A stretch of DNA of 64,000 nucleotides from an uncultured Chromatiales bacterium (GCA_964602805.1 CAZRSJ010000004.1:1604-65603); one strand, 5' to 3'; positions 8,501 through 57,099 are shown, numbered from the stretch's first letter. Translations and numbers: made by a program. The notes: generated by a model from the sequence alone, not told the origin.

Positions 8501-8598
8501 GGCGTTTTTCCGGGGAGCGGGGCCAGAAGGCCAAGGCGAGCATGGCGTTCCCGTTATTCTAGAGCATGACAGCGGCGGTTTGGGTCTACAATGGGGGC

Positions 8599-37947: not shown

Positions 37948-39137
37948 CCGTGCCTCAAGGAGACATCTACATCGGGCTCGGCAGCAATCTGGACGGACCG
38001 ACCGAGCAAGTCCGCTCCGCAGTGCGCGAACTGGGGCAACTGGCCCAGGTTCGCCTGTGCGCCTCTTCGGGCCTGTACCGAAGTCCGCCAATGGGTGGGC
38101 TGGACCAGCCGGACTATATCAATGCGGTCGTGCAGGTCGAAACCGACCTGGAGCCCGAGCAGCTGCTTCACGAACTGCAAGTGATCGAGCGTCAACACGG
38201 GCGAAAGGAACAACGCGAGCGCTGGGCATCGCGGACATTGGACTTGGACCTGCTCTTGTGGGGGCAGGAATGTTTTGACAGCAAGGTCCTGACGTTGCCG
38301 CATCCGGGCCTACATGAGCGGGCGTTCGTACTGGCTCCGCTGCAGGAACTGGACGCGAATCTGGAGGTGCCCGGGCGGGGCACGGTGTCGAAGTTGCTGC
38401 GGGAGTGCCAGTATTCCCGGGTGGACCGGGTGGGGGCCTGCCAAAGCCTGCCCGACTCGGCACGCCTGATCGCGGTGGAAGGGCCAATAGGTGTCGGCAA
38501 GACCACGCTGTGCAACCGTCTCGCAGCTGATTTCAACGGCCGGTTGATGCTGGAGAACTACCAGGAAAACCCTTTCCTCAAAGATTTTTTCGAAGCCCCT
38601 GAAAAAACGGCTCTGGCAACCCAGTTGCATTTCCTGACCAGCCGGGCCTGCCAGTTACAGCAATTGAACCAAGTGGATCTGTTCCAGCAGCGCACCTTCT
38701 CGGATTACGTGTTCGAAAAAAGCGACTGGTTTTCCCGGCTATCGCTTCAGGGCGACGAATATGACCTGTGGCTCAGCCTGTTCACTCATATGTCCGCCGG
38801 GCTTCCACGTCCGGACTTGGTTATCTACCTGCAGGCACCGGTGTCGGTTTTGCTGGAGCGGATTGCGATGCGGGGGCGGTCATTCGAGCGCGCGGTGCGT
38901 CCGGAGTTCCTGGAGGCGCTGTCGGCATTGATGGCGGAACACTTTCGCCATTACTCCGGAACCGTACTGACGGTCGATACTTCTTGCGCCAATCTGGCGG
39001 AAAGCCTTCAGGACTACCAGAGCCTGCTGGTTGCACTGGATGGCATGACCCAACCCGGCCAGTATTTCCTGGACCCGAGCCAACCGGAGGGAATGCTGGG
39101 TGACATGATTCCAGCCGATTCGATGACGCAGGCATGA
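37944..39137 (+). CDS. folK: fusion protein: N-terminal HPPK domain (2-amino-4-hydroxy-6-hydroxymethyldihydropteridine pyrophosphokinase) plus C-terminal deoxynucleoside-kinase domain
   Basis: Residues about 8-165 match FolK (IGLGSNL, DQPDYINAVV, RWASRTLDLDLLLWG, PHPGLHERAFVL). Residues about 175-397 carry a dNK P-loop (IAVEGPIGVGKTTL), an ENPFL motif and the LID region. There is no stop between the two halves. GTG start overlapping the pcnB stop. Confidence 0.75.
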   Translation: MTVPQGDIYIGLGSNLDGPTEQVRSAVRELGQLAQVRLCASSGLYRSPPMGGLDQPDYINAVVQVETDLEPEQLLHELQVIERQHGRKEQRERWASRTLDLDLLLWGQECFDSKVLTLPHPGLHERAFVLAPLQELDANLEVPGRGTVSKLLRECQYSRVDRVGACQSLPDSARLIAVEGPIGVGKTTLCNRLAADFNGRLMLENYQENPFLKDFFEAPEKTALATQLHFLTSRACQLQQLNQVDLFQQRTFSDYVFEKSDWFSRLSLQGDEYDLWLSLFTHMSAGLPRPDLVIYLQAPVSVLLERIAMRGRSFERAVRPEFLEALSALMAEHFRHYSGTVLTVDTSCANLAESLQDYQSLLVALDGMTQPGQYFLDPSQPEGMLGDMIPADSMTQA

Positions 39138-39922
39138 GTACGCCGGATTCTCCCGTGACGCTTGATGCCCTGCGCCGGATGGTGCGGGAGGGCAAGAATC
39201 GTTTTGCCGGCCTGACGGCCTACGATGCGACATTCACGCGCGTGCTTGATGCATGTGGAGTGGAGTTCATCTTGGTCGGCGACTCTCTTGGCATGGTTAT
39301 TCAGGGGCATTCCAACACTCAGCCGGTGACCATGGACGACATGGTCTACCACACGCAATGCGTCGCCCGAAGCATTCAGCGCGCCCTGCTGATCAGCGAC
39401 CTGCCGTATATGAGTTGCTGCGATGTGCCAATGGCGCAAGCCAATGCCATGCGGCTGGTGCAGGAAGGTGGTGCGCAGGTGGTCAAGCTCGAGGCCTCCC
39501 AAGACCAGGTCGAAATCGTCCGCGCCCTGTCCGATCAGCGCATCCCGGTCTGTGCGCACCTGGGGCTTCGTCCGCAGAGCCTGGCCAAATTGACTGGAAT
39601 CCGGCGGCACGGGCGCACTGCCGAGGAAGCGGACGAACTTCGGGAGACGGCGCTTGCACTGGAAGAAGCGGGTGCGGACCTGCTGCTGCTGGAATGCGTG
39701 GTCGACGACCTGGCTGCGGAAATCACCGAGCAGGCAGGAATCCCGGTGATCGGCATCGGTTCCGGCGCGGCCTGCGACGGACAGATCCTGGTGCTGTACG
39801 ATCTGTTGGGGTTGACCGACCCGGCTCCGAAACACGCCCGCAGCTTCATGAACTCAGGCCGTGGTGTCGCGGATGCCGTCCGGGCCTACATTGAAGCGGT
39901 CCATTCCGGATCCTTCCCATGA
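39134..39922 (+). CDS. panB: 3-methyl-2-oxobutanoate hydroxymethyltransferase
   Basis: PanB motifs (LTAYDA, ILVGDSLGMV, KLE). Confidence 0.9.
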   Translation: MSTPDSPVTLDALRRMVREGKNRFAGLTAYDATFTRVLDACGVEFILVGDSLGMVIQGHSNTQPVTMDDMVYHTQCVARSIQRALLISDLPYMSCCDVPMAQANAMRLVQEGGAQVVKLEASQDQVEIVRALSDQRIPVCAHLGLRPQSLAKLTGIRRHGRTAEEADELRETALALEEAGADLLLLECVVDDLAAEITEQAGIPVIGIGSGAACDGQILVLYDLLGLTDPAPKHARSFMNSGRGVADAVRAYIEAVHSGSFP

Positions 39923-40764
39923 TCCTGTGCCGCACGGCGGCGCAACTTGAGGCCGCGCTGGCCCAGCAGCCCAGGGAGCGAGCCCTGGTGCCGACCATGG
40001 GCGGCCTGCACGCCGGGCACCTGAGTTTGATCGAACATGCACGGCAGTGTCCCGGAATCGTGTTGGCCACCGTTTTCGTCAACCGTCACCAGTTCGATGA
40101 CCCGGAGGATTTCTCCAACTATCCCCGCGAAGAGGAAGAAGACTTCGAACGCCTGCGCCAGGCGGGGGTCGATCTGACGTATGCCCCTGACGAACAGGCA
40201 GTCTGGGGCGGCGAGCTTCCCCGGCTGGAGGAATTCGAGATCCCGGGCTTGACGGATGTGCTGGAGGGTCGGTACCGCCCGGGGCACCTGACGGCGGTAG
40301 CGGCGGTAGTCAGCCGGCTGTTCGACCAGACAGCCCCGACGGTTGGCGTGTTCGGCGAGAAGGATTACCAGCAGTTGGTGCTGGTGCGGCGCTTGGCGGC
40401 GGAATGCCAGCCACCAATCCGAATTATTGCCGCTCCGGTCGTGCGCGAGCCGGACGGCCTGGCCATGAGTTCACGAAACCGAAGGCTGGGTCCCCAGTCG
40501 CGTGAACAGGCGATTGGATTGCACCGGATCCTGGAAGCGGCTGCAGAATCAATCAAGGGTGGGCTCGATGTCGAGCAGGCGCAACGGCAGGCGTTCGGGG
40601 CCTTGGTCGAGTCAGGATTTGAACCGGACTATGTCGAGGTGCGTGAAGCGGATTCCCTGCGCCGGCCAGTCCCAACCGACCGGGACCTCGTCATTCTGAC
40701 CGCGGCGCGGTTGTCGGGAGTGCGGTTGCTGGATGTCGTCCGTTTCGGCCTAGCCTTGTCGTGA
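39919..40764 (+). CDS. panC: pantoate--beta-alanine ligase
   Basis: PTMGGLHAGH HIGH-type motif and the PanC fold. Confidence 0.9.
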   Translation: MILCRTAAQLEAALAQQPRERALVPTMGGLHAGHLSLIEHARQCPGIVLATVFVNRHQFDDPEDFSNYPREEEEDFERLRQAGVDLTYAPDEQAVWGGELPRLEEFEIPGLTDVLEGRYRPGHLTAVAAVVSRLFDQTAPTVGVFGEKDYQQLVLVRRLAAECQPPIRIIAAPVVREPDGLAMSSRNRRLGPQSREQAIGLHRILEAAAESIKGGLDVEQAQRQAFGALVESGFEPDYVEVREADSLRRPVPTDRDLVILTAARLSGVRLLDVVRFGLALS

Positions 40765-40816: not shown

Positions 40817-41716
40817 CTATGCGAGGTCGTGCCGTTCGAGAAACTCGCGGGTCACGGCAACGCACTCCTCGGGTTTTTCCAGTTGAAGCAAATGCGTCGT
40901 TTCAGGGATGAAATCGTAGTCCACTTCATAGGCGAGCCGCTGGTCGAGCGTGGGCAGATACGAGTGCGGCATGGTGGGGTCGGCGCCGACGATCTTCTTC
41001 GGACAGGCGATAAGGTCGAGATCGAGCAGCGGAAAGAAACTCCGGCCGTATTCCATCAGATTCGCTTCGTATTCACGGGGGCAGCGAAGCTCGTAATCGT
41101 GACCGCCCGCGGATTCTCGAAGCGTCGTCAGCGCCATGAGTTCGTGCACGCCAGGGGCAACCCTCTTGAATGATGGAAGAAACTTCAGGAGTTCGACAAA
41201 CTCCTCCCGCGACTTAAAGTGATCTTCCCGCTGCCGGGTCTTGGCAGCTATGAGCGCGGCCGCCTCCAGAAGCTCCGTCTGACTCATGTCGTGCTTAGCC
41301 AGGGGCGGATCGAACAAAACCAGCGCCGAATAAATTTTGCTACAGGACAGAATGGAGACAATCGAGGTGAGGGAGTGAAAGATGCCGACCGTCGGCTTGC
41401 TGCCATACTCACGATCAATGGATTCGAGAATGATGTCGTGATCGCAAACAAGCGTCGGAATATTGTGATCCCTCGGGGCGCCGACGCTATTCCAACCGTG
41501 GTTCCTGAGGTCGTAGACCATCACGTCGTAGTCGTTCGCGAGCAGAGACCAGAACGGGTAATAGAGATCGGCGGCGAGACCACTGCCGTGGCTCAGGACG
41601 ATCCTGGTGCCTGACGGATTGCCGTGCTGGCGTACGGTGGTGACGGTATCGTCGTCGAGACGAACATCGAGGGTTGATAAGGGGTTGGGTATCTCCCACA
41701 CGATGTCAATTGTCAT
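40817..41716 (-). CDS. alpha/beta-fold hydrolase (candidate thioesterase/hydrolase of the PKS locus)
   Basis: HG-motif oxyanion region (IVLSHGSG) and a C-terminal His-x3-E-x-PE end (THLLQLEKPEE). The nucleophile elbow reads GIFHSLTS, which is non-canonical versus GxSxG. Lower GC than the surroundings. Co-transcribed downstream of the discrete ACP. Confidence 0.7.
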   Translation of the reverse strand: MTIDIVWEIPNPLSTLDVRLDDDTVTTVRQHGNPSGTRIVLSHGSGLAADLYYPFWSLLANDYDVMVYDLRNHGWNSVGAPRDHNIPTLVCDHDIILESIDREYGSKPTVGIFHSLTSIVSILSCSKIYSALVLFDPPLAKHDMSQTELLEAAALIAAKTRQREDHFKSREEFVELLKFLPSFKRVAPGVHELMALTTLRESAGGHDYELRCPREYEANLMEYGRSFFPLLDLDLIACPKKIVGADPTMPHSYLPTLDQRLAYEVDYDFIPETTHLLQLEKPEECVAVTREFLERHDLA

Positions 41717-41888
41717 GGCAAAAAGTCCAGATGTCTGCCAATACGCGCCCTGAATGGAACGCAGCGCCGCCGGAATGGCGGGGCACTCAATGCCGAAAAT
41801 GTCGACCGCCTCTGGGCTTGGGGCGGTCGGTTGCGTTCAACTGGTATCAGGGATCATCCGGCGAGTGCACGGATGCCACCTGGAATGC

Positions 41889-42119
41889 TTACTGACCGCG
41901 CGCGTCGATGTAGCTTACGAGTTCGCGGAGGTTATTGAACTGTGTGCATTCATCCGCGACCAATCCGAGGTCAAATTCCTGGTTGACCAGTTTGAAAAAC
42001 GCGATCGCATCCACCGAAGAAACCCCGATGTCACTGAACGACCGGTCGAAATCTGGGTCACGGCCTAGGTCGAGGTTTTCGGTGATGAGCGTTCTTAGAC
42101 GGTCTTCAGTTCCAGACAT
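41889..42119 (-). CDS. discrete acyl carrier protein
   Basis: 76-aa four-helix ACP-like protein with the phosphopantetheine-attachment motif DIGVSSVD. Transcribed divergently from the PKS start, 285 bp away, from an AT-rich intergenic region. Confidence 0.65.
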   Translation of the reverse strand: MSGTEDRLRTLITENLDLGRDPDFDRSFSDIGVSSVDAIAFFKLVNQEFDLGLVADECTQFNNLRELVSYIDARGQ

Positions 42120-42404
42120 GTTTATTTCTCCCTGAAAGTGAATGTTATTGTTATGTGTGCAGTCCGAAGTTCCTAGCCCAAATTAGACCTGGAGATAACC
42201 GGACAGACCGATGCCCCTATAAGGGCAGAGTGCCATACGATGAGCAGTTTGGACAGTGTAGCATTAATTTCAACGTGGTCAGCGACAGTCTCATTTGACT
42301 AGTTTTGTCTCTTGGCGAAGGGGGGCCAGGGTTCTTGTTTGCCGTTAGGCTCGACTTGGAATACGATGTTTTAAGCTAATTCCAGTTCATGTAACGAGCC
42401 CTCT

Positions 42405-45400
42405 ATGGCAAAGCCGGACAAATCTCCCACCCCCTCTGACCCTCAGGAGTCGAAGCGCGTCGCGGGCGATCCGCCCATAGCGGTCATAGGCATGGCCTGC
42501 CGGTTTCCCGGCGCGCCGGATATCCCGGCTTTCTGGCGCCTGCTCGAAAGCGGCGGGAACTCGATCAGCGAGGGAATCTCCGGCGCGGGCGCCGAACGCA
42601 TGGGGGAACTTTTCCCTGGCGGCGTGGTTCCGAACGAAGCCTGCCGCTTCGGATCCTTCGTTTCTGATATCGACCAGTTCGATGCCTCGTTCTTCCGGAT
42701 TTCACCGGCAGAAGCACAACTGATGGATCCACAGCAGCGCATGATGCTGGAGACGAGCTGGCTGGCGCTTGAAGATGCAGGGATCGATCCGGACCGACTC
42801 AAAGGCGGCCAGACTGGCGTCTACACCGGGATCAGCAATGACGAGTACCGAATGCTGGTTCTGGACACGACCAAGCCGACCGAGGCGGCCGGATGCCTCT
42901 ATGCCCTCAGCGGCACCAACCTGAACGGCGCCAGCGGGCGGGTGTCTTTCGTCTTGGGTCTCATGGGGCCGGCGAAGGCCGTGGATGCCGCTTGCGCGTC
43001 GTCCCTGGTCTCGGTCCACGATGCGGTGGTTGACCTGCAGCAGGGCAAGGCGGACCTGGCCATTGCCGGCGGCGTGCAGGCCCTCCTGAACGGCCGCGTC
43101 TACGAACTGCGTGCGGACGCAATGATGCTGTCTCCCGACGGGCAGTGCAAGACTTTTGATGCATCTGCGAACGGTTACGTACGCGGCGAGGGTTGCGGGG
43201 TCGTGATCCTGAAACGACTGAGCGAAGCGGAAGCGGATGGCGATCGTATCTGGGGCGTCATCCGAAGTTCGGCGGTGAATCACGGCGGAGCCAGCGTTGG
43301 ATTGACGGTCCCGAATACACCTGCGTTGGAACAGGTGATCGAGACGGCGCTATCGCGGGCGGGCATCCCCCCGTCGGAAGTGGATTACCTGGAGGCGCAC
43401 GGAACCGGAACGACGGTGGGCGATCCCATCGAAATCAATGCGGTAGCCTCTGTCTACGGGAAGGAACGCGAGGCCGATCACCCGCTTCTGGTCGGTTCCG
43501 TAAAAACCAACGTCGGCCACCTGGAGTCTGCCGCCGGGGTTGCCGGGCTAATCAAGGCAGTGTTGGCGGTGGAGCGGGGCGTAATTCCGAAACACCTGCA
43601 CTTCCAGGACCCCCACCCGGGCATCGACTGGGATCATCTGCCGTTGCAGATCACTTCGTCCACGACGGACTGGCCGCGCCATCGCGGGCGACCGCGGTTG
43701 GCGGGCGTGAACTCCTTCGGGATATCCGGGACGAACGCCCACATTGTGGTGGAAGAGTACGACGGTCCAAGCCCGGCTCTTGACGAAGGATATCGGGCTG
43801 CGGGTTCCGCAAAGGCCGTGGAGATCCCGCCGCCGGCGACCGTGGCGGATCTGTCGTTGCCGGAACAGGAAGGGAGCGGACGCAAGAGCCGTCTTTTGCC
43901 GTTGTCGGGCAAATCGGAGGGCGCGCTTCGGGAACTGGCAAAGCGGTACCTGTCGTGGCTCGACGACCGGGCCGAAGAATCCTCGGAAAGCATTGCCATG
44001 GAACCGTTGCTGTCGGACATGGCGTGGAGCGCCAGCGTGGGACGGAGCCATTTCGACTATCGTGCGGGGATCGTGTTCCGCGATGCCGAGTCGCTGCGGG
44101 AACGCCTGAAAGATTTGGCCGAAGCAGACGATGGCGTGAAACCCGGGAGGGCGGCCAAGGTGGCATTTGCCTACACCGGGCAGGGAAGCCAGTGGGCCGG
44201 CATGGGACAAGCACTCTACGAACACGAACCGATAGCGCGCGCGGTTCTGGATCGTTGCGAAGCGGCATTCCGGGATGCGCGGGGAACCTCCCTGCTGGAT
44301 GTGATGTTCGGCCGGGACGAGGGCGAAGGCGAACTTGAAGACACGGCGTGGGAACAACCGGCCCTCTACGCTTTGGAGTGCGCGCTGACGGCTCTATGGA
44401 CGAGTTTGGGCATCAGGCCCAGTGTGGTCGTGGGGCACAGCGTCGGGGAACTGGCGGCGGCACAGGCGGCAGGAGTGTTCAGTCTCGAGGACGGGATGCG
44501 GTTTGCCGCGACCCGGGGCGCCTTGCTGTCGGGAACCGAACCGGGTGCCATGGCCGCAGTGTTTGCACCGGCTGAGCAGGTGGCATCGGAGGTCGAGGCG
44601 TTCAATGCATCGTCATCCAACGCCAGGCTGAGTGTTTCGGGGTACAACGGGACCCATCAGGTGATCAGCGGCCCGATCGAGGAAATTGAAGCTATTTCGA
44701 AGCACCTCGAATCAGAAGGGATCCGGGTCAAGCGGCTGAACACGGCCCGGGCATTCCACAGCGCCCTGGTGGAGCCGGCCTTGGACACACTGGAAGCGTC
44801 CCTGGAGGGCATCACAATCAAGCCTCCCTCCCTGACCGTGGTCAGCAACCTGACGGGCCAGGCAGTCGGACCCGACGAGTTGCTGGACGGGACCTATTGG
44901 AGACGGCATGCCCGGGAGCCGGTGGCATTCGCTCGCGGTGCCGAAACACTGGCGGAACTCGAGGTGAATCTGGTACTGGAGATCGGCCCGCGCTCCGTAT
45001 TGGCCCCCATGGCAGCTGCGGCCTGGCCCGAATCCGCACAGGCTCCCGCAGTCCTGTCGAGCCTGTACCCGCCATCCGGGAACGGCAAGGCATCCGGAAG
45101 CGGCAGCGATTTTGCAGAGGCAGTCTCGGAAGCCTATCAGGCAGGGCTGCCGATTCATTTCCCGGGGCTTTTCACGGGCGAAACGCGGCGGCGAATTTCG
45201 TTGCCGGGCTATCCATTCCAGCGCGAACGCCACTGGGTTGAGGCCTCGAAGCGACGGCACTTGGCCGAGGGTCACCCCCTGCTGGGCGTTCGGCATGAAT
45301 CCGCCAACGGCGAGATCACGTTCGAGACCGAGATCTTCCCCTCGGATCCGACATGGCTGAGCGATCATCGGGTGTTCGGCCGGCTCATCGCACCGGGCGC

Positions 45401-48400
45401 ACTTTATGGCGCCATGGCGGCATCGGCTTCTCTTGCCGAAGGCGGCCGGTCGATGGTGGTGGAAGATCTGCAGTTGCATAATCCGTTGATCTTTTCGGAC
45501 GAGGGGGCCGGGGAAGGAGAGGAAGAGAATGGCCGAAAAGTTCAGGTTGTGCTCGATGCCCCCGAACAGGCGCCATCGCAGCGTGTCCGGATATTCAGCA
45601 AGGGAAGCGAGGAAGGCTGGGTTCAGCACATCGAGGGCCGCGTGTCGCCGGGCACCTCCATGCCGGAAGACAGTGCGCGGATCGATGTCGAAAAACTGAA
45701 GTCCGACCTGTCGCCGGCTGACGTGTCGGCCTATTACCACGCCAAGGCGGCGACCGGGATCGACCTCGGCCCATTCTTCCGCACGCTAGGGAAGGTGTGG
45801 TCCGGGCCAGGTGAAGCGTTGGGAGAAGTGTCTTTGCCGGAATCTCTGGGCCGCAACGAATTGGATGTCCACCCGCTTGTACTGGACGGTTGCTTCCAGG
45901 TCGTGGGCGTGGCACGAAACATGACGGGCGCCCAGGGGGAGGCGACGTACCTGCCGTTCGGCTGGGAGCGGCTGTGGCTGGCGAAGCGACTGCCGGACCG
46001 GGTGCTTTGCCACGTGCGCATCAATGAGGCTCCCGGGCAATCGGAAGAGAAACCGGGCCAGGCGCCGGAGGTTCTGAGCGGGGAATTGCGCATCTACGAT
46101 CCGGATGGGGTTTTGCTTGGCGCCTTGAGCGGGTACACGGTGAAACGGGCGACGCGGGCGGCGCTGTTGTCGGCGGTCGAGGGAGTGAAAGATCTGCTGT
46201 ATGAGGTTGTCTGGCGCGATTGTGCCCTCGCACAGGGAATCACTTCCGCCGACTTCTTCCCGGATCCGTCTTCTGTCGCAGCTTGCACGGGGTTGTTCTC
46301 CGAGTATGTGGCAGCCGAGGGGGTCAAGCCGGAGGACAGGAATTCCCTGCTGATGGATCTGGAGCGATGGTCGCGATCCTATGCGCTCACGAACCTGGAG
46401 AAGCTGGGCTGGCAGCGCGAGGCAGGCATGACCGTGGACCCCGACGATCTGCGGCAACGCTTGGGAGTCATCGAGGATCACAAGCGCCTGTTCCGCCGGC
46501 TGTTTGAAATGCTCGCCAAGTCGGGAGTGCTGGAAGAGACGGAGGAGGGTTTCACCGTCGTGGTGGGGCCGGAAGACCCGCTGCCGGACGAACTGCCGGA
46601 CAACCCAGAGGAATTCCACACCCGGATGGCCGAACTCTATCCTCATGGCTCGACCGAGATCGGGTTGTTCCGCCGGTCCGGCGGCGCCCTGGTCGAAGTG
46701 CTGCGCGGTCAAGAGGACCCGTTGACGCTCCTGTTCAGCAGCGGAGAACCGACTGCGGCGGATCTGTACCTGAAGGCGCCGGTCGCCCGTGCCGCGAACC
46801 GGTTGCTGGCCGACGCGGTTCGAACGCTGGTGGCCGCATTGCCCGAGGGGCGGCGCCTCAGGGTCGTTGAAGTCGGTGCAGGCACGGGGTCGGCGACGGC
46901 GTCCGTCCTCCCGGAGCTTCCACAAGGACGATTCGACTACACGTACACGGACATTTCGGCGGGCTTCTTTGCGGAAGCGGAGGCGCGCTTCGGGGATGCT
47001 GGCGGCTGCATCGAATACCGGCCGCTGGATATTGAAAAGGACCCCATCGCCCAGGGCTTCAACTCCCACGGCTATGACTTGATGATTGCATCCAATGTGC
47101 TTCACGCGACGCGCCATCTTGATGAAACATTGGGGCACTGCCGGGATCTTCTTGCTCCATCGGGGCAGTTGATCGCGCTTGAGAACCTCCACGGCCAGGG
47201 CTGGATGGATCTGACTTTCGGACAGTTGGACGGCTGGTGGCGGTTTGCCGACGACTACCGTCCCCACCACGCCCTCGCGAGCCCCGCGGTGTGGCGTCAG
47301 GCACTTGGCAATTCGGGTTTCGGGGAAGTGGAAGTTCTTGGAGTGGACGAGTCCGACGCGGCCAAGATGCCGGACAAGGGCGTGATCGTCGCACGGGGTC
47401 CCGTGGAAGTGGCGGAGCCCCCGGGCGTATGGGTGCTGACAGCGTCTCACGGAGACGGGGCCGCAGAACTCGCGGGCTTGTTGGCGGCAAGGAACCAGAC
47501 GGTCGTATTGGCGGGAAGCGAATCGTCCGAGGACGGGCAATTGGCAGCAGGTGGTCCCGGCGTTTTCAAGGCTGCCGTGGAAATGGATCAACGGGAATCG
47601 TGGCAGTCCCTGCTGGAAAGCCTGCCCGGGGAGGTACCGTTCAACGGCGTGGTGCATCTTGCGGCGCTGGACGGCCATGGGACAGAGGCGGCGACCGAGG
47701 AAATGGCGGAAGACGTCAAACAAATCGGCGCGAGCGCATTGGCGCTGGTGCAAGGCCTGACCGATGCCGACGTCACACCCGAGAAGGGCGTGTGGTTTGT
47801 TACGCGCGGGGCGCAAGTGCTGGAGCGGGAGCGCGGCGGGGCACTTGCAGGTGCGACACTCTGGGGCTTTGGCAAGGTGGTGGCCCAGGAAGCGGCGCAT
47901 CTGCAACCGAGGATGATCGATCTGGATCCCGCGGAAACAGCTTTCTCGGCTGACTTTCTCAACGAATTGCTCTACCCGGACCCGGAAAACCACATCGCTT
48001 ACCGTTCGGGCGACCGCCTGGTTGCGCGCTTGGTTCGATTCGGCACCGAGGCGGAGCGGCTGGTCCTGCCGGAAGAATCGGACTGGGTACTGTCTCCGGA
48101 TCCGGGCGGGATATTCGAGAAACCGGAAATCAAGCTGCTCCCGGAGCGCACCCTGGAGCCGAAGGAAGTCCGCGTTACGGTCGAGGCCACGGGGCTCAAC
48201 TTCTGGGATGTGTTCCGCTCGCTCGGTTTCATCGAGGAAGGGAACCTGGGGCGGGAGCTGTGCGGCCATGTTCTCGAGGTGGGCTCCGACGTTTCTACCG
48301 TCTCGGCCGGAGACCGCGTGGTTGGATTGGGATTCGGGGCATTCGGGCCGGAAATGATCACCCGGGAAGAACTGGTAGCGCCAGCCCCGTCGGGCGTTTC

Positions 48401-51400
48401 AGTGTCGGGACTTGCCACGATTCCGAGCGCATTCGTGTCGGCGGCGCTGTCGTATGAACTGTCGGGCCTGGAAGCTGGAGACCGCGTTCTGATTCATGCG
48501 GGTGCGGGCGGCGTGGGGCTCGCGGCCATCCAGCTTGCAAACGCCGCGGGCGCGGAAGTTTTCGCCACCGCGAGCGCGCCAAAGCAAGCCTATCTCCGGT
48601 CACTGGGCGTGGAACACGTGTTCGACAGCCGCCAGACGGCATTCGGGAAGGAGATCCTTGAAGCTACGGATGGCGCGGGAGTGGACGTAGTACTGAATTG
48701 CCTGACGAGCGAGGGATTCATTGATGCAAGCCTGTCCTGCCTGGCGAAGGGAGGGCGTTTCGTGGAGCTGGCCCGGCGCGACATTCTGAGCAAGGACGAG
48801 ATGGCGGCGGTGCGCCCGGACGTGGCCTATGACATCCTGGAACTGGACGTTCTGAAAAAAACAGACCCGGCGTGGGTCGGAAGGGTCCTGGATGGCGTCA
48901 TGGAGCAGTTTTCAACGGGGAAACTGGCGCCGATCGTCCACAGCCGGTGGCCGCTGGCCGAAGCGGGAGCCGCATTGAGGTTCATGCGCTCGGCACGGCA
49001 CCTCGGAAAGATCGTCCTGACGCCGCCGGCGCTCATGAGGGGCCAGTTGCGGCAGGACCGGACCTATCTGGTGACTGGCGGATTGGGTGGAATCGGGTGT
49101 GCCGTGGCCGAATGGCTCGCGGGCCAGGGGGCGGGAGCCATCGTGCTGAACGGGCGCCGGGACCCGGATGCTGCGGCCGAGGAGACGATCAGCGCACTCA
49201 GGGAACGCGGGATAACGGTGCAGGTGGAGCTGGCGGATGTGCTGGACGTCGCTGCGGTGGACCAGATGTTGGCGCGGATTGATCAGGAGCTGCCGCCCCT
49301 CGGCGGCGTGATCCACAGCGTGGGGGTGCTGTCGGACGCCGCGTTGACCAACCAGAGTTGGGAAAGTTTCGAGACGGTGCTGTGGCCAAAGATCCTGGGG
49401 GCCTGGCATCTGCACCGCGCGACAATGAATCGCGACCTGGATCTTTTCGTCCTCTTCTCGAGCCGGGTCGGCGTGATGGGCAATCCCGGCCAGGCGAATC
49501 ACGCTGCGGCCAATGCCTTTCTGGACCAGCTCGCTGGCCATCGCCGTGCGTTAGGTCTCCCGGGACAGGCCATCGCCTGGGGGGCATGGTCGGAAATCGG
49601 CGAAGCGGCAGAGCAACGGGAACGGATCGAGCGGCGGCGCGCAGCGCTTGGCGGCCGCTGGTTTACTCCGCAACAGGGAATCAAGGCACTTGAGAATCTG
49701 GTGCGCCAAGACACCACGACTTCCGTGGTGATGGCGATGGACTGGGCCGTGTTCGAGGAAGCCACTGGAACCCGTCCGCCCCTGCTGGAGGACCTGCTGT
49801 CCGTTGCGTCGGACCTCGAGACCGAGGCCTCGGCTCCGTCGGGCGACCTGCTTTCCCAGTTGCGTGGGGCGCCTGCGGCAGCACACGAGGGGCTTCTCGT
49901 CTCTTTCCTGCAGCAAGAGGTGCAAGCGGTGCTGAGGCTGCCGACGGCACCGGCACCCACGGTAGGGTTTTTCGATCTGGGGATGGACTCGCTGATGGCA
50001 GTGGAGTTGCGGAACCGCCTGAACCGCGCATTTTCAGAAGAATACACGGCATCCAACACGGTCGTGTTCGACTATCCCGACATAACTACGCTCGCGGGTC
50101 ATTTGGCCGAGGAGGTTGGCGATATCGGCGGCGCGCCTGCTCCTCAGGCCCAACCCGAGCCCGAGCCCGAGCGCCAGCCGATCGAACAACGCGAGGATGA
50201 CGACATCGCAATCGTGGGTATGGCGTGCCGCTTTCCGGGCGCTCCGGATCTCTCGTCATTCTGGCGTGTGCTTGAAGCTGGTGAGGACACGGTGACCGAC
50301 GGGCGCCAGGATTCCGACTTCTGGGGCGATCTTGGGGAAGACTTTCGCACCAAATACGCCGCTTACCGCCGGGGCGGGTTCGTGGAAGGGCTTGACAAAT
50401 TCGATGCACGCTTCTTCGGCATCCGGCCGATCGAGGCGCGGACCATGGACCCCCGGCAAAGGCTGTTGCTGGAAACGAGCTGGCAGGCGCTTGAGGATGC
50501 CGGAATGGACCCCGACCTGCTGAAAGGCAGCCAAACCGGGGTGTACGTGGGGTTGGGCGGCAGCGAATATCGGGATCTGGTCGCAGCCCTCGGTGAGGAT
50601 GACAACTACATCGGTACGGCCGGCAGCGTAGCGGCCGGGCGGATTTCCTATGCACTGGGCTTCATGGGGCCGGCAATCCCGCTTGACATGACCTGTGCCT
50701 CGTCATTGGTTGCGGTGCATCAGGCAGTCGCAAGCCTGCAGCGGGGCGAGGTGGATTTGGCTCTGGCCGGAGGCGCCAACGTGGTCCTGTCTCCTTCAGT
50801 CACAAAGTTCATGGCGGACTTCGGGATGCTGTCGGCGAGCGGGCGGTGCGGGGTTTTCGATGCTGCGGCAGATGGTTTCGTGCGAGGCGAGGGTTGCGGG
50901 ATCGTGGTTCTCAAGCGGTTAAGCAAAGCGGAAGCGGACGGCGACCGAATCTGGGGTGTGATCCGGGGTTCAGCGGTTAACCAGAACGGGGCGAGTGCCG
51001 GCATATCGGCACCAAGCGGAACCGCACAGGAGCAGGTACTCGGAGAGGCGCTGGCCCAGACCGGGATTCCGCCGTCGGAGGTGGATTACCTGGAGGCCCA
51101 TGGAACAGGCTCGGAAATGGGAGACCCGATCGAGGTGAGCGCGGCGGCGGCAGTGTACGGCAAAGGGCGCGAGGCGGATCGCCCGCTGCTGATCGGTTCG
51201 GTCAAGCCGAACATCGGACACTTGGAGTGGGCGGCAGGAGTTTCGGCGTTGATTAAAGTCGTGCTGGCGATGCAGCAAGGAAAGATCCCGAAACAACTAC
51301 ACCTCCAGAATCCGAGCCCGCAGGTGGACTGGGACCAGTTGCCCGTGCGGGTGGCGTCGGAAACGATCGACTGGCCGCTAGACCCCGACCGGCCGCCGCG

Positions 51401-52733
51401 GGCGGGTGTGAGCGCTTTCGGGTTGTCGGGGACGAACGCCCATGTCATTGTGGAAGGCTACGACACGTCGCAAGGCGGGTCATCCAAGTCCGACGGGATG
51501 TCCGCCCCCAGGGGGACCGAACAGACTGTCGACATCTCGCTGCCGGAATCCGTCGCAGATTCGCTGCCGGCAACAGGGGAATTCGACCCGCGTGCGGCAA
51601 GAATCCTTCCCCTCTCCGGGAAATCGCATGCAGCACTTGGAGAGTTGGCAGGGGAATACCGGTCATGGCTTGATGATCACGCAGAGGAACTTTCCGAAGA
51701 AGGCGAAACTCCAGACCGATTGCTTGCCGATATGGCATGGACGGCCGGGATGGGGCGAAGTCATTTCACTCACCGCGCAGGCGTGGTGTTCAGCGACGCC
51801 GGATCCCTGAGGGACGGGCTGGAGGCGCTGGTAGAAGCGGGCGAGAAATCGGAGCCGCGAGTGGCGGCGAAGGCCGCGTTCGTGTACACCGGGCAGGACA
51901 GCCAGTGGGTCGGGATGGGAGAAGCGCTGTATCGGAGCGAGCCGGTAATACGGGCGGTGCTGGATCAATGCGATGCCTGGCTTCAGGAAGAACGGGAAGT
52001 TTCGTTGCTGGATGTGGTGTTTGGTCGGGCCGATTCGAAAGAAAGCCTGGACGATCCGGCATGGGCGCAACCGGCTATCTATGCATTGGAATGCGCGCTC
52101 ACGGCATGGTGGCGGAGCACGGGGCTTCGCCCGAGCGCGGTGATTGGCCATGATCTCGGGGAAGTCGCGGCGGCGCAGGCAGCGGGAGTCTTGGGCCTGA
52201 AAGATGGCTTGCGGTTTGCGGCAGCGCGCGGTGCGTTGGTTGAGGCCCCGGATGAATTGGAAACGGCTTTCTCGGATATCGCGATCGCACCGCCATCGAT
52301 TACCCTGGTCAGCGGCACAATGGGCCGGACGGTCGGACCCGACGAAATACTCGATGCAACGTACTGGCGCGAGCAGGCGTGCAAGCCGGCGGAACTCCAG
52401 AAATGCGCCGGGGTGCTGTCGGATTTCGGAATCGATGGGCTGGTGGAGATCGGCCCGCGCGAGGCATTTGGCCCCATGCTCGCTTCCGCCTGGCCGGAGT
52501 CGGCGGGAGATGCCGGGGAGCCCGCGCTGATCCCAAGCCTGTACGAGCCGTCCGGTGACGAGCCGGTGGAGGACATTTACCGGAAATTCTTGGGAGCCGT
52601 GGCAAAGGTGTACGAGGCGGGACTGCCGATTTCCTTCCAAGGCTTGTTCGCGGGAGAAGCACGGCGCCGAATCTCACTGCCGGGCTATCCGTTCCAGCGC
52701 CGCCATCACTGGTTCAAGGCACTGGAGCAATAG
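42405..52733 (+). CDS. type I polyketide synthase, KS-AT-DH-cMT-ER-KR-ACP-KS-AT* (terminal AT degenerate)
   Basis: 3442-aa ORF. Domains called from signature motifs, detailed in the sub-features. KS1 (DAACASS, HGTGT, NVGH). AT1 (GQGSQ, GHSVGE, RAFHS). DH (HPLLG...[15 protein letters not shown]). cMT ([22 protein letters not shown]). ER ([15 protein letters not shown]). KR ([10 protein letters not shown]; [15 protein letters not shown]). ACP (LGMDSLMA). KS2 (DMTCASS, HGTGS, NIGH). AT2 remnant (GQDSQ, GHDLGE). Confidence 0.9.
42470..43760 (+). other. PKS domain: ketosynthase 1
   Basis: Active-site Cys codon at 42993 (DAACASS). HGTGT and KTNVGHLE motifs present. Confidence 0.8.
44150..45170 (+). 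other. PKS domain: acyltransferase 1 (malonyl-type motifs)
   Basis: GHSVGE with the Ser codon at 44439. RAFHS (the HAFH-type motif usually associated with malonyl-CoA). Confidence 0.75.
45250..46100 (+). other. PKS domain: dehydratase
   Basis: HPLLGVRH (HxxxGxxxxP region) and [17 protein letters not shown] (DxxxQ/H region). Confidence 0.65.
46700..47250 (+). other. PKS domain: C-methyltransferase (class I SAM MTase)
   Basis: Motif [10 protein letters not shown], motif [15 protein letters not shown], motif [15 protein letters not shown]. Confidence 0.7.
48100..49030 (+). other. PKS domain: enoylreductase (MDR family)
   Basis: NADPH-binding [17 protein letters not shown]. Confidence 0.7.
49050..49620 (+). 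other. PKS domain: ketoreductase (catalytic Tyr position occupied by His)
   Basis: Rossmann motif [11 protein letters not shown]. The catalytic-region reads [22 protein letters not shown] where KRs normally have QxNYAAAN. The His codon is CAC at 49500. Confidence 0.65.
49900..50100 (+). other. PKS domain: acyl carrier protein
   Basis: [16 protein letters not shown]. Ser codon at 49989. Confidence 0.75.
50190..51470 (+). other. PKS domain: ketosynthase 2
   Basis: DMTCASS (Cys codon at 50673). HGTGSEMGD and KPNIGHLE present. Confidence 0.8.
51860..52733 (+). other. PKS domain: truncated, probably inactive acyltransferase-like remnant (AT*)
   Basis: GQDSQ instead of GQGSQ. GHDLGE instead of GHSxG, with the Asp codon GAT at 52152. 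The segment that carries the xAFHS specificity motif in AT1 is missing. The ORF ends with a post-AT linker homologous to the one after AT1 ([14 protein letters not shown]). Confidence 0.65.
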
Positions 52734-52798: not shown

Positions 52799-53179
52799 AT
52801 GAAACTGACTTTCCTCCGTGCCCGCCTGCATCAGGCAACGGTAACCCATGTCGAGCCGGACTACGATGGTTCGTGCGCGATTGATGGCGAGTTGCTGGAA
52901 GCGGCCGGCATCAGCGAGTACGAGCAGATCGACCTGTACAACATTACCAATGGGGAACGGCTGACGACCTATGCCATCCAGGCCCGCCACGGCAGCCGAA
53001 TCATTTCGGTGAATGGCGCGGCGGCGCACAAGGCGTCGCCGGGGGATCAGGTCATCATTGCCGCCTACGCGCAACTGGAACCGGAGGAAGTGGCGGACTT
53101 CAAGCCCGTTCTGGTGTATCTGGGCGAAGGCAACCGCATCGAGCGCATCACCCACAAGATTCCGGTCCAGGCGGCCTGA
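52799..53179 (+). CDS. panD: aspartate 1-decarboxylase (pyruvoyl-dependent)
   Basis: 126 aa with the [19 protein letters not shown]-type N-terminus and the GSCAID self-processing site. Confidence 0.9.
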
Positions 53180-53180
53180 G

Positions 53181-56006
53181 TCAACCAGTATTTCGCATTC
53201 CCGCCGCGATCGCGCTGATCGATCGCGCCACGGCATCCTGGTAAGGATCGGGGTCGGAGGCTTCGCGCATACGGCGCAGTAGGCTGAGCTGGATCGCGTT
53301 GAGGGGATCCAGGTAGGGTTTCCGGCGGCTCAATGACCGGCGCAAGACTTCCTGCGTTTCCAGAAGTTCTTTGGATTTTGTCACCCGCAGAACAAGCTTG
53401 CGAGTAAGCTGGTATTCTTTCTTGATTCGCTTGTAAATCCGTTCGGCGTCGTCTGGATTCTGGCTCAGTTGCATGTACTGCTGCGCGGTCGGCATGTCGG
53501 CCTTGACGAGCGCCATCTGGATGTTCTGCATCAGGGTCTGGAAGAAAGGCCAACGCTCGTACATGAGGCGAATTTGCTTAAGTCCGGTGCGCGGATGCGC
53601 CTCCAAGTAGGACTCGAGCGCGGTGCCGATGCCGTACCAGGCGGGCAGGGTATGCCGCGAGAGGGACCAGCCGAACACCCAGGGGATGGCGCGGATGGAA
53701 TCCATCGAGCGGTCCACCGCGCGGCGGTGCGAAGGCCGCGAGCCGATGTTGATGTTGCCGATCTCCTGCACCGGGGTGACCTCGTAGAAGTAGTCTAGGA
53801 ATCCCGGAACCCCGATCAGTTCCCGATAAGCCCGTTCGCCGTCTTCGGCAAGCTTTTCCATGATCCTGAGATCATCGGCGTATTCATGGGCCAGTTTGTG
53901 GAACAGCAGGTGGCGGGAGGCTACGATCAGCCCGGTCACGCCCATGGTCAGTTCGTACACGGCGGTCTCCAGGTTGGAGTACTTGTGCGACAGCACTTCG
54001 CCCTGCTCGGTCAGCTTGATGGCGCCACGCACCGTGCCGGGCGGCTGCGCCGTAATGGCCTCGTAGGCCGGCCCCCCGCCTCGCCCGACGGTCCCGCCGC
54101 GGCCATGGAAAAGCCGGAACTGCACTCCACGGCGCCTGGAGACCTCGTGAATCTGCTTTTGCGCCTGGTACAGGTTCCACGCGGAAGCCAAGATGCCGCC
54201 ATCCTTGCAGGAGTCGGAATAGCCCAGCATGATGTCCTGCACGCCGCCTGATGCATTGAGCAACGGGCGGTAGACAGGATCCTGGAACAGTCGATTCAGG
54301 ATACTTGGCGCCCTGCGCAGGTCCTCGATCGTCTCGAACAACGGGCAGACCTGCAACAGGCAGAAGTGGTTTTTCCCGTGGCCTCCGGCCAGGCCGGCCA
54401 GCCCTCCCAGGAACAACACCTCCAGAACATGGCTGGCCTCGTGGGTCATGGAAATGACGTACTGGCCGAAGATTTTCGGGCTGGTTCGTTTCGGCACTTC
54501 CCGCACGAGGTCGAACACGGCCAGGGTTTCGCGCGTGGCGGCGGACAGTTCCCTGCGGTCCAAGGAGGCCGGTCCGTCCATCTCCTTGAGATGCTTTCGC
54601 AGGGCTTGGACGCGCCCGGCTTCGGTCAGGTTGGCGTAGTCGGTCCCATCCATGGCCTGCATGATTTCGCCGACCGCCTCCGTGTGGCGCGGAGATTCCT
54701 GGCGGAGATCGAGTCGCGCAAGGTAGAAGCCGAATGTCTCTACCAACCGGATCAGGTCGGTCAATTCTCCGTCCGCGATGCGGCCGTCACCCTGCTCGAC
54801 CAGCGAGTCGTAGATCAATCGCAGGTCGTCTAGGAACTGGCTCTCGTCCTGGTAGCTGTCCGAACTGTGCCAGGATCGGCCCGCTAGGTGATCGAGCCGA
54901 TGCTGCAGCCGGTACAGGATGACTTCCAGCTTGCAGCGGTACGGTTCGGTCTCGAACAGTGAAATGCTTCGGTTGCGCACCCGGTCCAGCAGCTTGCGGT
55001 CAGCCTCCAGGCTGGTGCGCATGCGGTCGGGCAGGTCGATCAGGTGGGAGGAATGGCTGAGGATGCTTTCCAGTTTGCGAACGCGCCGGATGTATTCGAC
55101 GAGGATGGTGCGCGCCTGCATCCGGCAGGCTTCCCGGGTCACGCGTGCGGTGACGTGGGGGTTGCCGTCGCGGTCGCCACCGATCCAGGAGCCGAACTGG
55201 ATGATGCTCGGGAGCGTGCGGGGCGAATCCGGGTAGGTCCGGCGCCAGGTGCGCTGCAGGTTGCGGTACAGGATCGGAATCGCCTCGAACAGGGATTTTT
55301 CGAAATAATGCAGGCCGTTCTTGACTTCGGTCTGCACGGTCGGCTTGCCCGGACGAACCTCGTCGGTCTTCCACAGCAACTGGATTTCCGCCAACAAGCG
55401 CTCTCTAGCTTCGTCGCGCTCCATCTGGCTCAAGGCCGGGTCGTCCGAGGATTGCAGCAGGATAAAGATCCGCCGCAAGGCTTCTTGCATGATGCGGCGC
55501 TTCGCCTCGGTCGGATGGGCGGTGAAGACCGGCATGTAATTCGTCTGAAGCAACAGTTTTTCGGCTTTGGCGGCGCTGAAGCCCTGTTTCTTGAGTGTGC
55601 GCAGGGTCGCATCGAACGAGCCCGTCCACAGTGCCGTGCCGGCGCGCAGGTATCGGTGGCGCCGATCCTGGAGCGCCGTCTCTTCGGCGACGTTGACCAG
55701 GCTGAAGTAGGTGGAGAATGCCCGGATGACCTGGCTGGTGAGGTCTTGATCCAGTTGGTCGATCAGGCGGATCAGGCGGACGCGCCGTTTCGTGTCCTCT
55801 TCGCGTTGCAGGCGGATGTAGCCCCGGCGTAGACGCTCCACGATCTGGAACACTTGGGGTGGGGCGTGCTCTTGGAGCACGAGGCCGAGCAGGCGACCCA
55901 GCAGTTTGACCCGCTGTCGTAACTTGCGGTCAGTGGCATCGCCTATCGACGGCTTGTGTGTGGCCGCGCTAGGCATAGGAGTGACAAGTGGAGGCGATGT
56001 GCCCAT
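53181..56006 (-). CDS. ppc: phosphoenolpyruvate carboxylase (second, canonical-type copy)
   Basis: PEPC motifs VFTAHPTEAKRR, FGSWIGGDRDGNPHVT, FHGRGGTVGRGGGPA, and the canonical C-terminus AIAAGMRNTG. The longest ORF has a GTG at 56114, but that reading overlaps the AbiEii gene. Start is uncertain; internal ATGs lie at 56006 and 55976. Confidence 0.85.
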   Translation of the reverse strand: MGTSPPLVTPMPSAATHKPSIGDATDRKLRQRVKLLGRLLGLVLQEHAPPQVFQIVERLRRGYIRLQREEDTKRRVRLIRLIDQLDQDLTSQVIRAFSTYFSLVNVAEETALQDRRHRYLRAGTALWTGSFDATLRTLKKQGFSAAKAEKLLLQTNYMPVFTAHPTEAKRRIMQEALRRIFILLQSSDDPALSQMERDEARERLLAEIQLLWKTDEVRPGKPTVQTEVKNGLHYFEKSLFEAIPILYRNLQRTWRRTYPDSPRTLPSIIQFGSWIGGDRDGNPHVTARVTREACRMQARTILVEYIRRVRKLESILSHSSHLIDLPDRMRTSLEADRKLLDRVRNRSISLFETEPYRCKLEVILYRLQHRLDHLAGRSWHSSDSYQDESQFLDDLRLIYDSLVEQGDGRIADGELTDLIRLVETFGFYLARLDLRQESPRHTEAVGEIMQAMDGTDYANLTEAGRVQALRKHLKEMDGPASLDRRELSAATRETLAVFDLVREVPKRTSPKIFGQYVISMTHEASHVLEVLFLGGLAGLAGGHGKNHFCLLQVCPLFETIEDLRRAPSILNRLFQDPVYRPLLNASGGVQDIMLGYSDSCKDGGILASAWNLYQAQKQIHEVSRRRGVQFRLFHGRGGTVGRGGGPAYEAITAQPPGTVRGAIKLTEQGEVLSHKYSNLETAVYELTMGVTGLIVASRHLLFHKLAHEYADDLRIMEKLAEDGERAYRELIGVPGFLDYFYEVTPVQEIGNINIGSRPSHRRAVDRSMDSIRAIPWVFGWSLSRHTLPAWYGIGTALESYLEAHPRTGLKQIRLMYERWPFFQTLMQNIQMALVKADMPTAQQYMQLSQNPDDAERIYKRIKKEYQLTRKLVLRVTKSKELLETQEVLRRSLSRRKPYLDPLNAIQLSLLRRMREASDPDPYQDAVARSISAIAAGMRNTG

Positions 56007-56073
56007 TATACCGGGCTGGTCCGAGCCCCGATCGTGCCGAAACAGCCCCGGATTCAAGGGGCCAGCAGAGGGT

Positions 56074-57099
56074 TCAGATGGCTTGTGCGTTGGCTCGGGC
56101 CTGAAGGTCGGCACATCGTTCGACCAATTCCCCGAACGGAATCTCGTCGCCGAACAGCATGCCTCCGTGGATCATGTTGGCGTAATCCTGTGCAAGAACC
56201 TCGAGCGCGGAGCCGGTCGGGACAAGTTCCAGGCCGCCTGAAACTGCTGCTTCATAATCGATCCAGTTCCCCGCGGTGTCTTTCTCCCGGAAGAAGGTTG
56301 CCTTGTGGCGCGCGACCGAAAGCGCAAGTGCCCGGTCGGCCAAGGCGTTTTCGGCAATACCGGCATCATCGAGACGCACCAGGTCGTGCCAGTGGCGCGC
56401 AAGGCGGTCTCCTCGGAAGTGTTTTCGTTCGCAGAACACGTGCATGGCGGTCGCCTTCTCCCAAAAGGTCCGCTCTGCCAGCATGACGGCGGGGCGGGTC
56501 GACGGGAACTCCACATCGGGCAATTGTGCGGCCGCATTGCACTGCACGGGGTGAACTGCATATGGTTCCCCGGTCGAACGCGCGCCGAATTCCAACACAA
56601 CCGTGGGTTCCACAAAAACGTAGTCGTGGGGGAATACGGGTTCATAGTCAACCAGGATGCGGTTGCCTTCGACCCGGCATCTGGCAAATGATTCCCTCTG
56701 GGAAAGTTCTTTTTCGATGGTTGGCAGGACTTGTTCGCAGACCCGCTCGGCGAGCCGCGACCGAATTCTGTCTGTCCAGCGCTTCTCTTGGCTGCGCGTG
56801 GGTGGAATCGGGTCACCGTTTCCCTCCCCGACCCATTCCGGGATGATGGCGCGGATGCTGTAGGTAATGTCGATGTCTTCGGAAAATCGGCGGATTACCT
56901 GGTAGGCCTTGGATAACGAAGTGCCCCCTTTAAAGACCAGGTCCTCGTGAAACGGTGCATCGAACAGGGCGCGTAGCGTGTCGACCACCCAGGTGTCTTT
57001 TTCCAAGAGATACGCCGAACATCCGGTCAGTCGCTCGGAAAATTTCAGGAGTTCACGCTGGTCATCATTTGGCAAGAGACAGAAAGGGATTCTAGGCAT
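56074..57099 (-). CDS. nucleotidyltransferase AbiEii/AbiGii toxin family protein (DUF1814)
   Basis: 341 aa with the family hallmark LVFKGGTSLSKAY...IRRFSEDIDI (nucleotidyltransferase GS and [DE]xD motifs). It overlaps the upstream antitoxin-like gene by 8 bp. Confidence 0.75.
   Translation of the reverse strand: MPRIPFCLLPNDDQRELLKFSERLTGCSAYLLEKDTWVVDTLRALFDAPFHEDLVFKGGTSLSKAYQVIRRFSEDIDITYSIRAIIPEWVGEGNGDPIPPTRSQEKRWTDRIRSRLAERVCEQVLPTIEKELSQRESFARCRVEGNRILVDYEPVFPHDYVFVEPTVVLEFGARSTGEPYAVHPVQCNAAAQLPDVEFPSTRPAVMLAERTFWEKATAMHVFCERKHFRGDRLARHWHDLVRLDDAGIAENALADRALALSVARHKATFFREKDTAGNWIDYEAAVSGGLELVPTGSALEVLAQDYANMIHGGMLFGDEIPFGELVERCADLQARANAQAI

Follow-up and report, generated by a model that had tools for sequence, protein, structure and literature searches.

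In a 64,000-nucleotide stretch of DNA from an uncultured Chromatiales bacterium (GCA_964602805.1 CAZRSJ010000004.1:1604-65603; hereafter the window, with positions counted from its first letter), a single open reading frame (ORF) on the forward strand (42405-52733; ORF list and translation) encodes a type I polyketide synthase (PKS) of 3442 aa; it is probably a monomodular PKS of the Sup ('sponge symbiont ubiquitous') type from a gammaproteobacterial, sulfur-oxidising sponge symbiont near Candidatus Porisulfidus, and its C-terminus probably makes up the leading half of a split second module devoid of a working acyltransferase (AT). Pfam matches and motifs give the domain order KS1-AT1-DH-cMT-ER-KR-ACP1-KS2-ATx, where KS stands for ketosynthase, DH for dehydratase, cMT for C-methyltransferase, ER for enoylreductase, KR for ketoreductase, ACP for acyl carrier protein and ATx for what is left of the second AT (see Table 1). 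This KS-dead-AT ending is the normal, conserved hallmark of a known and very common family of sponge-symbiont PKSs.

ATx is a true AT remnant that lacks the nucleophile, the catalytic His and the small subdomain, and is thus unable to transfer acyl groups. The motifs described in the initial annotation are indeed in place, GQDSQ at aa 3163 (nt 51891-51905) and GHDLGE at aa 3248 (nt 52146-52163), with the GAT codon at 52152 putting an Asp in the position of the Ser. That GHDLGE might be a linker was discarded, since three alignments place it on the AT nucleophile elbow: BLASTP of KS1-AT1 against KS2-ATx (54% identity across KS, linker and the N-terminal half of the AT) pairs it with GHSVGE and picks up again past the xAFHS region; phmmer against the PDB finds the KS-AT didomain of CurL (4mz0) as best match (E 6e-45) and aligns it to the GHSVGE of CurL; and the alignment with the reference AT, E. 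coli FabD, agrees. The subdomain that carries the specificity motif is missing, as had been claimed: ~80 aa, comprising the small subdomain and the catalytic His, are deleted at ~nt 52242. In the phmmer alignment query 8-185 corresponds to CurL 519-710 and query 188-342 to CurL 794-936, leaving CurL 711-793 (~83 aa; small subdomain and catalytic His) unmatched in ATx, while residues 3-281 of FabD find counterparts in AT1 and no more than residues 5-122 in ATx, where the alignment ends just past the Arg117 equivalent. An AlphaFold2 model of aa 2596-3442 (pLDDT 85, pTM 0.88) superposes on KS-AT didomains, with CurL first (4mz0_A, TM 0.85) and GfsA, Lsd14 and DEBS after it. An active AT combines three features, a Ser in GHSxG, a catalytic His and a small subdomain of ferredoxin-like fold, all of which AT1 has; ATx carries Asp instead of Ser and has lost the His together with the ~80 aa. 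The RAFHS sequence of AT1 reads as a malonyl-type motif, and AT1 is the sole intact acyltransferase of the cluster.

Nothing of a carrier or releasing nature follows, in agreement with the earlier description: C-terminal to KS2 Pfam gives no further PP-binding or thioesterase (TE) match, and the ORF ends just past the post-AT linker, the stop lying 6 codons after a stretch of 12 residues. A frameshift or an assembly artefact concealing an ACP or TE can be excluded, because panD starts 65 nt beyond the PKS stop and because both the orthologues and the distant homologues terminate at the same place.

A genome scan (one genome per bacterial species, 185,579 species) returned 37 close loci, all of them metagenome-assembled genomes (MAGs) of sponge-named taxa (Porisulfidus, Poriferisocius) or bins from sponge studies, and the same KS-dead-AT ending occurs in at least 23 loci, from sponge-symbiont MAGs of ~10 phyla. 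Five orthologues at 86-95% identity (L001-L005) belong to Candidatus Porisulfidus and other gammaproteobacterial sponge MAGs; the remaining loci, 46-61% identical, are distributed among Nitrospinota, Dehalococcoidia, Rhodobacteraceae, other Alpha- and Gammaproteobacteria, Latescibacterota, Acidobacteriota, Gemmatimonadota, Rhodothermales and Acidimicrobiales (Ca. Poriferisocius). The monomodular relatives have the identical domain order and end 13-25 aa past the LPxYPF motif. The architecture, which the initial annotation had called uncommon, is instead the fixed design of a very large family of sponge-symbiont MAGs (37 loci; 2670 clusters of the partner hydrolase).

The state of the terminal AT across this family was assessed by aligning 38 AT1 domains and 79 terminal ATs with E. 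coli FabD. In all 38 AT1 domains the equivalents of Q11, H91, S92, R117 and H201 are invariant; in the terminal ATs Gly takes the Ser92 position 68 times, Asp 7 times, Asn twice and Ala and Ser once each, 78 of the 79 have the His201 column deleted, Gln11 is degenerate (E 28, Q 18, H 11 and others), His91 is H in 32, D in 7, Q in 6 and other residues elsewhere, and Arg117 is retained in 49. The elbow glycines are largely kept (G90 in 71/79, G94 in 75/79), so that G-x-G-x-G-E is mostly recognisable. Likewise, a motif scan of the best 120 protein matches found G[HQ]GxGE and no xAFHS in the proteins that end in KS-AT, and GHSLGE together with PAYHS or QAFHS in KS-AT-DH proteins; the stretch between the KS end and LPxYPF measures 387-426 aa in the terminal didomain, as against 481-501 aa in module 1. 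In two Acidimicrobiales loci (Ca. Poriferisocius; L021:17771-19591 and L025:17762-19591) the same distance is merely 172-175 aa, and what directly follows the KS-AT linker is the final ~25 aa of the post-AT linker, a trans-AT-like KS-linker layout within an otherwise cis-AT PKS; these clusters have no AT remnant, yet they still carry the ACP, a phosphopantetheinyl transferase (PPTase) and the hydrolase. In two Bryobacterales loci (L039:2246-12535 and L040:1197-11486) KS2-ATx is a gene of its own, of 844 aa, placed 70 nt past a 2561-aa gene running from KS to ACP, with hydrolase and ACP genes close by; a MacB/FtsX-type transporter gene is found there between the KS-ATx gene and the hydrolase and ACP genes. 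A bimodular Acidobacteriota PKS (L028:1-12284) has a last module KS-ATx-DH, with elbow GCGAGE and no small subdomain, followed by a discrete ACP and the hydrolase. Lineage-specific decay was rejected, the inactivation being family-wide and KS2 forming one old clade. Taken together, the alignments indicate that the terminal AT was inactivated before the family spread and now persists as a faster-evolving scaffold of a KS-linker-post-AT-linker architecture; the remnant appears to be dispensable, having been fully removed in one lineage (Acidimicrobiales), and KS2-ATx is a separable unit, with a gene of its own in Bryobacterales.

The motifs of KS2, which precedes this scaffold, were correctly described as intact (DMTCASS, HGTGS and NIGH, at aa 2761, 2899 and 2936, respectively), and in 45 of 45 homologues, across phyla, C169, H304, K339, N341 and H344 are invariant. 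The ratio dN/dS, computed over the five orthologues of the Porisulfidus group, is 0.091 for KS2 and 0.035 for KS1, and the cross-phylum identity (mean pairwise value over nine phylum-level lineages) is 65% and 69%, respectively. In a neighbour-joining tree every KS2 falls in one clade and every KS1 in another, with the KSs of the multimodular Bryobacterales proteins joining the KS1 clade. These proteins (L026-L034, from Bryobacterales and one alphaproteobacterial MAG) are giant relatives, with ORFs of >7500 aa that extend beyond the loci and contain near-identical KS-AT-DH-cMT-KR-ACP repeats without ER; their KSs are those that group with KS1. From the dN/dS values, the invariant residues and the single clade it follows that KS2 should be regarded as an old, maintained catalytic domain, condensation-competent by every sequence criterion.

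The remaining parts of the second module are expected to be supplied in trans. The initial annotation had proposed a split second module served by a discrete ACP and a free-standing hydrolase encoded on the opposite strand; both genes are real, no further ACP-like gene or hydrolase gene of the cluster type was found within the window, and the comparison with other loci identifies them as genuine partners. Indeed, the discrete ACP homologue adjoins the PKS in loci of many phyla; in most other phyla its gene shares the strand of the PKS and is found 100-200 nt beyond the PKS stop, with an Sfp/HetI-type PPTase and then the hydrolase coming next (order PKS-ACP-PPTase-hydrolase in L006, L008, L012, L013, L021, L024 and L025), and it is because the ACP gene mostly begins so close to the PKS stop that KS2-ATx and ACP look like a split module. 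A PPTase adjoins eight related loci and a permease (Xan_ur-type) twelve; co-inheritance with the PKS extends to the discrete ACP and the hydrolase, in most cases also to an Sfp-type PPTase and frequently to a permease. The Ser of the ACP is conserved in 16 of 16 sequences and aligns with Ser36 of AcpP, and this protein is likely, on sequence grounds, to be the carrier of the split second module. The hydrolase has 2670 homologue clusters at 90% identity; the best 120 homologues are 65-96% identical, nearly all of 299 aa, with a mean column identity of 76% and with His114-Ser115, Asp246 and His275 invariant, the last three residues probably forming a Ser115-Asp246-His275 triad. The hydrolase is also better conserved across phyla than any PKS domain, and has many further invariant His, Asp and Arg residues (H31, H43, H73, H84, D92-H93-D94, R71). 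In a protein database search its homologues bore generic names only, none of them 'Sup', no protein longer than ~1500 aa was retrieved from that database, and a look-up of the exact window sequence returned no database record.

The mechanism that would accommodate these observations starts from module 1, whose DH-cMT-ER-KR region (45273..49595) has the composition of a C-methylating, fully reducing loop: an acyl starter and one malonate would be joined, C-methylated and fully reduced to a 2-methylacyl-ACP1. KS2 would accept this chain from ACP1 and, once the free ACP had been malonylated in trans (most simply by AT1, otherwise by the cellular FabD), would carry out a condensation to give a 3-oxo-4-methylacyl-ACP. 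This intermediate could either be processed on the free ACP, by the reductive domains of the PKS or by the type II fatty acid synthase (FAS), resulting in a mid-chain methyl group, or be cleaved off the ACP by the hydrolase. A single methylating extension followed by a non-methylating elongation would fit the product proposed for Sup.

Several points weigh against this picture. All steps of the mechanism are inferred from sequence; the discrete ACP could have another role, e.g. that of a starter carrier; its loader may be either AT1 or FabD; and reductive domains dedicated to the second module are missing from the cluster, so that a β-keto product could have more than one fate. The hydrolase is a candidate releasing enzyme, but its predicted fold is that of a generic lidded α/β hydrolase, which points to no particular role, the TE of CurM being one of many esterase and lactonase matches. 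Neither a PPTase (AcpS/Sfp) nor a cluster-type permease was found in the 64-kb window; FabD and another ACP (AcpP) were also not found there, the only FabD-like sequences being AT1 and ATx. Finally, the assignment to Sup was made through architecture, habitat and cluster content.

Three other explanations of the ending have to be considered. According to the first, which we regard as unlikely, KS2 is a non-elongating transfer or gatekeeper domain that does no more than take over the completed 2-methylacyl chain of ACP1 and hand it on, for release, to the hydrolase or the discrete ACP; no second condensation would take place, and therefore no working AT would be needed. Non-elongating KS domains (KS0) at protein ends are well known in trans-AT PKSs, the second module has neither a functional AT nor a reductive domain, and the AT remnant can vanish while the rest of the cluster is retained. 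Known KS0 domains, however, typically have no HGTGT histidine, their mark being the loss of the catalytic His with the Cys kept; in KS2 both H2899 and H2939 are present, and at the condensing site neither the two His nor Lys and Asn vary in any of the 45 sequences across phyla. KS2 is, moreover, nearly as conserved as KS1, and a discrete ACP with a dedicated PPTase is kept nearby, neither of which a pure hand-off to the hydrolase would need.

The second explanation, quite unlikely in our judgement, assigns to ATx a specific non-catalytic job, such as the docking of the free ACP or of a trans-acting AT, as do the AT-docking regions of trans-AT PKSs. Purifying selection on ATx (dN/dS 0.118 and 0.182 for its two halves), the glycine elbow kept in most of the family and the good-confidence predicted fold speak for it. 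Against it, ATx evolves faster than any catalytic domain of the PKS: its halves are 52% and 32% identical across phyla, the C-terminal one being the less conserved, as compared with 71% and 54% in the large subdomain of AT1 (AT1 dN/dS 0.04-0.095) and ~45% for the linkers (dN/dS 0.21-0.25); former substrate-binding residues such as R117 drift, and the Acidimicrobiales clusters persist with ACP, PPTase and hydrolase but without the remnant. These values suggest a purifying but relaxed selection, as expected of a scaffold. The third explanation, that KS2-ATx is a functionless relic of a module duplication in a plain single-module or iterative FAS-like enzyme using ACP1 only, agrees with the 54% identity between the two didomains and with the certain inactivity of the AT part, but is highly improbable because a relic would have decayed or been lost, whereas KS2 has a dN/dS of 0.09, invariant catalytic residues, a separate clade kept in ~10 phyla and an independent gene in Bryobacterales.

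Within the favoured reading of a split, AT-less second module, it has tentatively been considered, although we think it somewhat unlikely, that KS2, the dead AT and the free ACP form a hand-over device from a PKS module to the type II FAS: KS2 would perform a condensation that FabF and FabB handle poorly, i.e. the extension of an α-methyl-branched primer, and would do so on a free ACP that the FAS can use. Coupled to this proposal, and sharing its tentative standing, is the view that the series from an intact AT, through an inactivated one without small subdomain, to complete excision would be a natural record of a cis-AT module becoming trans-loaded and AT-less.

As far as the identity of the family is concerned, it fits the published Sup PKSs, which are small, monomodular, sponge-specific, extremely abundant and diverse, occur in many bacterial lineages and have a methyltransferase with a full reductive loop (PMC4245539, PMC3908369), and which accounted, as supA, for >99% of the KS amplicons in one study (PMC4245539); their proposed products are mid-chain methyl-branched fatty acids (PMC4245539, PMC9864124), and the SupE permease is part of the published cluster (PMC3908369). 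The window PKS is likewise small and monomodular (one complete module plus the terminal KS-ATx in 3442 aa), its family is restricted to sponge microbiomes in many lineages (37 loci, ~10 phyla), and according to Pfam it has the methyltransferase and the full reductive set (DH, ER and KR) of a methyl-branched, saturated product; of the accessory genes, ACP and hydrolase are in the window, permease and PPTase only at related loci. The canonical cluster among the relatives analysed here comprises five genes (PKS, ACP, PPTase, hydrolase and permease), whereas the window copy comprises three (hydrolase, ACP and PKS), the two small ones inverted upstream of the PKS, and lies between panC and panD. 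A full-text literature search gave no description of a C-terminal KS-AT in Sup proteins and no experimental demonstration of the Sup product or mechanism, the primary Sup papers being outside the texts searched. SupA has reportedly been drawn with a second KS and an AT. The Sup clusters, supA to supE, are reportedly those of Fieseler et al. 2007 (AEM 73:2144) and Hochmuth et al. 2010.

Other known systems resemble the window PKS in part. The other sponge-specific monomodular PKS/FAS family, Swf ('sponge widespread FAS'; PMC3908369), was rejected, as SwfA has the order KS-AT-DH-ER-KR-ACP with neither a methyltransferase nor a second KS, HATGT in place of HGTGT and no DPQQ, and is accompanied by other partners, a reductase-sulfotransferase and a radical SAM enzyme (PMC3908369). 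With the KS-linker arrangements and split modules of trans-AT PKSs the second module shares a KS, a KS-AT linker, a segment of post-AT type, the lack of a working AT and the distribution of a module over several polypeptides, together with the presumed loading of the carrier from outside the module; the likeness is confined to this module, the protein being otherwise cis-AT, with KSs nearest to those of cis-AT didomains (CurL, DEBS, GfsA), and most family members keeping ~210 aa of the AT large subdomain. The protein does not qualify as a trans-AT PKS, since the AT of module 1 is intact and in cis and no free-standing AT gene occurs in the window cluster. The cyanobacterial modules of CurL, CurJ and JamJ include the best didomain match (CurL) and are of the same cMT-containing reducing type, but they have active ATs and cis ACPs and belong to long assembly lines ending in a TE. 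In iterative, fully reducing synthases of the MAS (mycocerosic acid synthase) and animal FAS type the order of module 1, KS-AT-DH-(MT)-ER-KR-ACP, recurs, a methyl-branched acyl product is expected, and MAS KS-AT structures are among the sequence and structure matches of the didomain; MAS, however, takes its branches from methylmalonyl-CoA and not from a cMT, and has no second KS, dead AT or discrete ACP partner.

Table 1. Position and supporting evidence of the features of the cluster and of its borders in the 64,000-nucleotide window.
Feature	Position (nt)	Strand	Evidence
panC, left border of the putative island	39919..40764	+	PF02569; same junction in L001, L002, L003, L005
α/β hydrolase, 299 aa	40817..41716	-	PF12697; Ser115-Asp246-His275 probable triad
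Discrete ACP, 76 aa	41889..42119	-	PF00550; Ser35 in GVSSVD
PKS, probably SupA-type	42405..52733	+	ORF, Pfam; orthologues L001-L005 at 86-95% identity
KS1	42477..43754	+	Pfam aa ~25-450; Cys197, HGTGT, NVGH; dN/dS 0.035
AT1	44160..45044	+	Pfam aa 588-872; GQGSQ, GHSVGE (Ser679), RAFHS
DH	45273-46166	+	Pfam PS-DH, aa 957-1254
cMT	46791-47321	+	Pfam Methyltransf_12, aa 1463-1639
ER	48159-49019	+	Pfam ADH_zinc_N, aa 1919-2205
KR	49062-49595	+	Pfam KR, aa 2220-2397
ACP1, cis carrier domain	49905..50105	+	PF00550, aa 2501-2567; LGMDSL
KS2	50199..51455	+	Pfam aa 2599-~3017; Cys2764-His2899-His2939 triad, Lys2934
KS-AT linker domain 2	51456..51869	+	PF22336/PF22621/PF16197, aa 3070-3144; model
ATx, remnant of AT large subdomain	51870..52499	+	partial Acyl_transf_1; GQDSQ, GHDLGE
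Post-AT linker and stop codon	52500..52733	+	Pfam, motifs; orthologue ends
panD (aspartate decarboxylase), right border of the putative island	52799..53179	+	PF02261; same junction in L001, L002, L003, L005

The genes panC and panD are normally neighbours, and in the window the hydrolase-ACP-PKS unit (40817-52733, ~12 kb) interrupts the usual panB-panC-panD arrangement. On the left the order is pcnB, an ORF joining folK to a deoxynucleoside kinase, panB and panC, followed by the hydrolase, the ACP and the PKS; on the right panD is followed by a PEP (phosphoenolpyruvate) carboxylase gene on the reverse strand. Judging from its sequence context, the unit looks like a horizontally acquired island from which the PPTase and permease genes seen in other phyla have been lost. 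The panC and panD junctions were not found in L004 (2121-12535; 86% identical), where the ACP, PPTase and hydrolase genes are downstream on the opposite strand; the PKS frame of this locus is broken inside the ER, with ORFs of 2161 aa and 1377 aa overlapping at 8402-8606, as in a frameshift pseudogene or a long-read assembly error. Among the neighbouring genes, the folK ORF (37944-39137, +) fuses an HPPK domain (aa 9-137) to a deoxynucleoside kinase domain (aa 176-361), and two PEP carboxylase genes occur within 35 kb (19679-22381, +, 900 aa; 53181-56114, -, 977 aa), with transketolase and pyruvate kinase genes between them. The start of the second is overlapped by a gene for an AbiEii-type nucleotidyltransferase toxin (56074-57099, -), and a Schlafen/AlbA_2-HATPase_c_4 protein is encoded at 62103-63845 (-); both genes, close to the island, may serve in defence or belong to mobile elements.

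Sup-type genes dominate the PKS surveys of high-microbial-abundance sponges, and the present analysis adds to them a quantitative view of the terminal-AT inactivation, the variants without an AT remnant or with a split gene, and, for the Porisulfidus lineage, a minimal island of three genes placed between panC and panD; at ~12 kb, the window cluster is the smallest version so far. For annotation, the KS-ATx ending is to be taken as normal in this family and not flagged as a truncated or broken PKS. The stepwise disappearance of the AT among members of a single family should be useful to engineers interested in how much of the AT a KS-AT didomain can shed. A defined set of proteins is thereby available for testing, comprising a KS2 active by sequence, an AT remnant that is dead and can be dispensed with, and two obligatory partners, the discrete ACP and the hydrolase; if true, the hand-over to the type II FAS would account for the way in which the fatty acids of sponge symbionts acquire mid-chain methyl groups.

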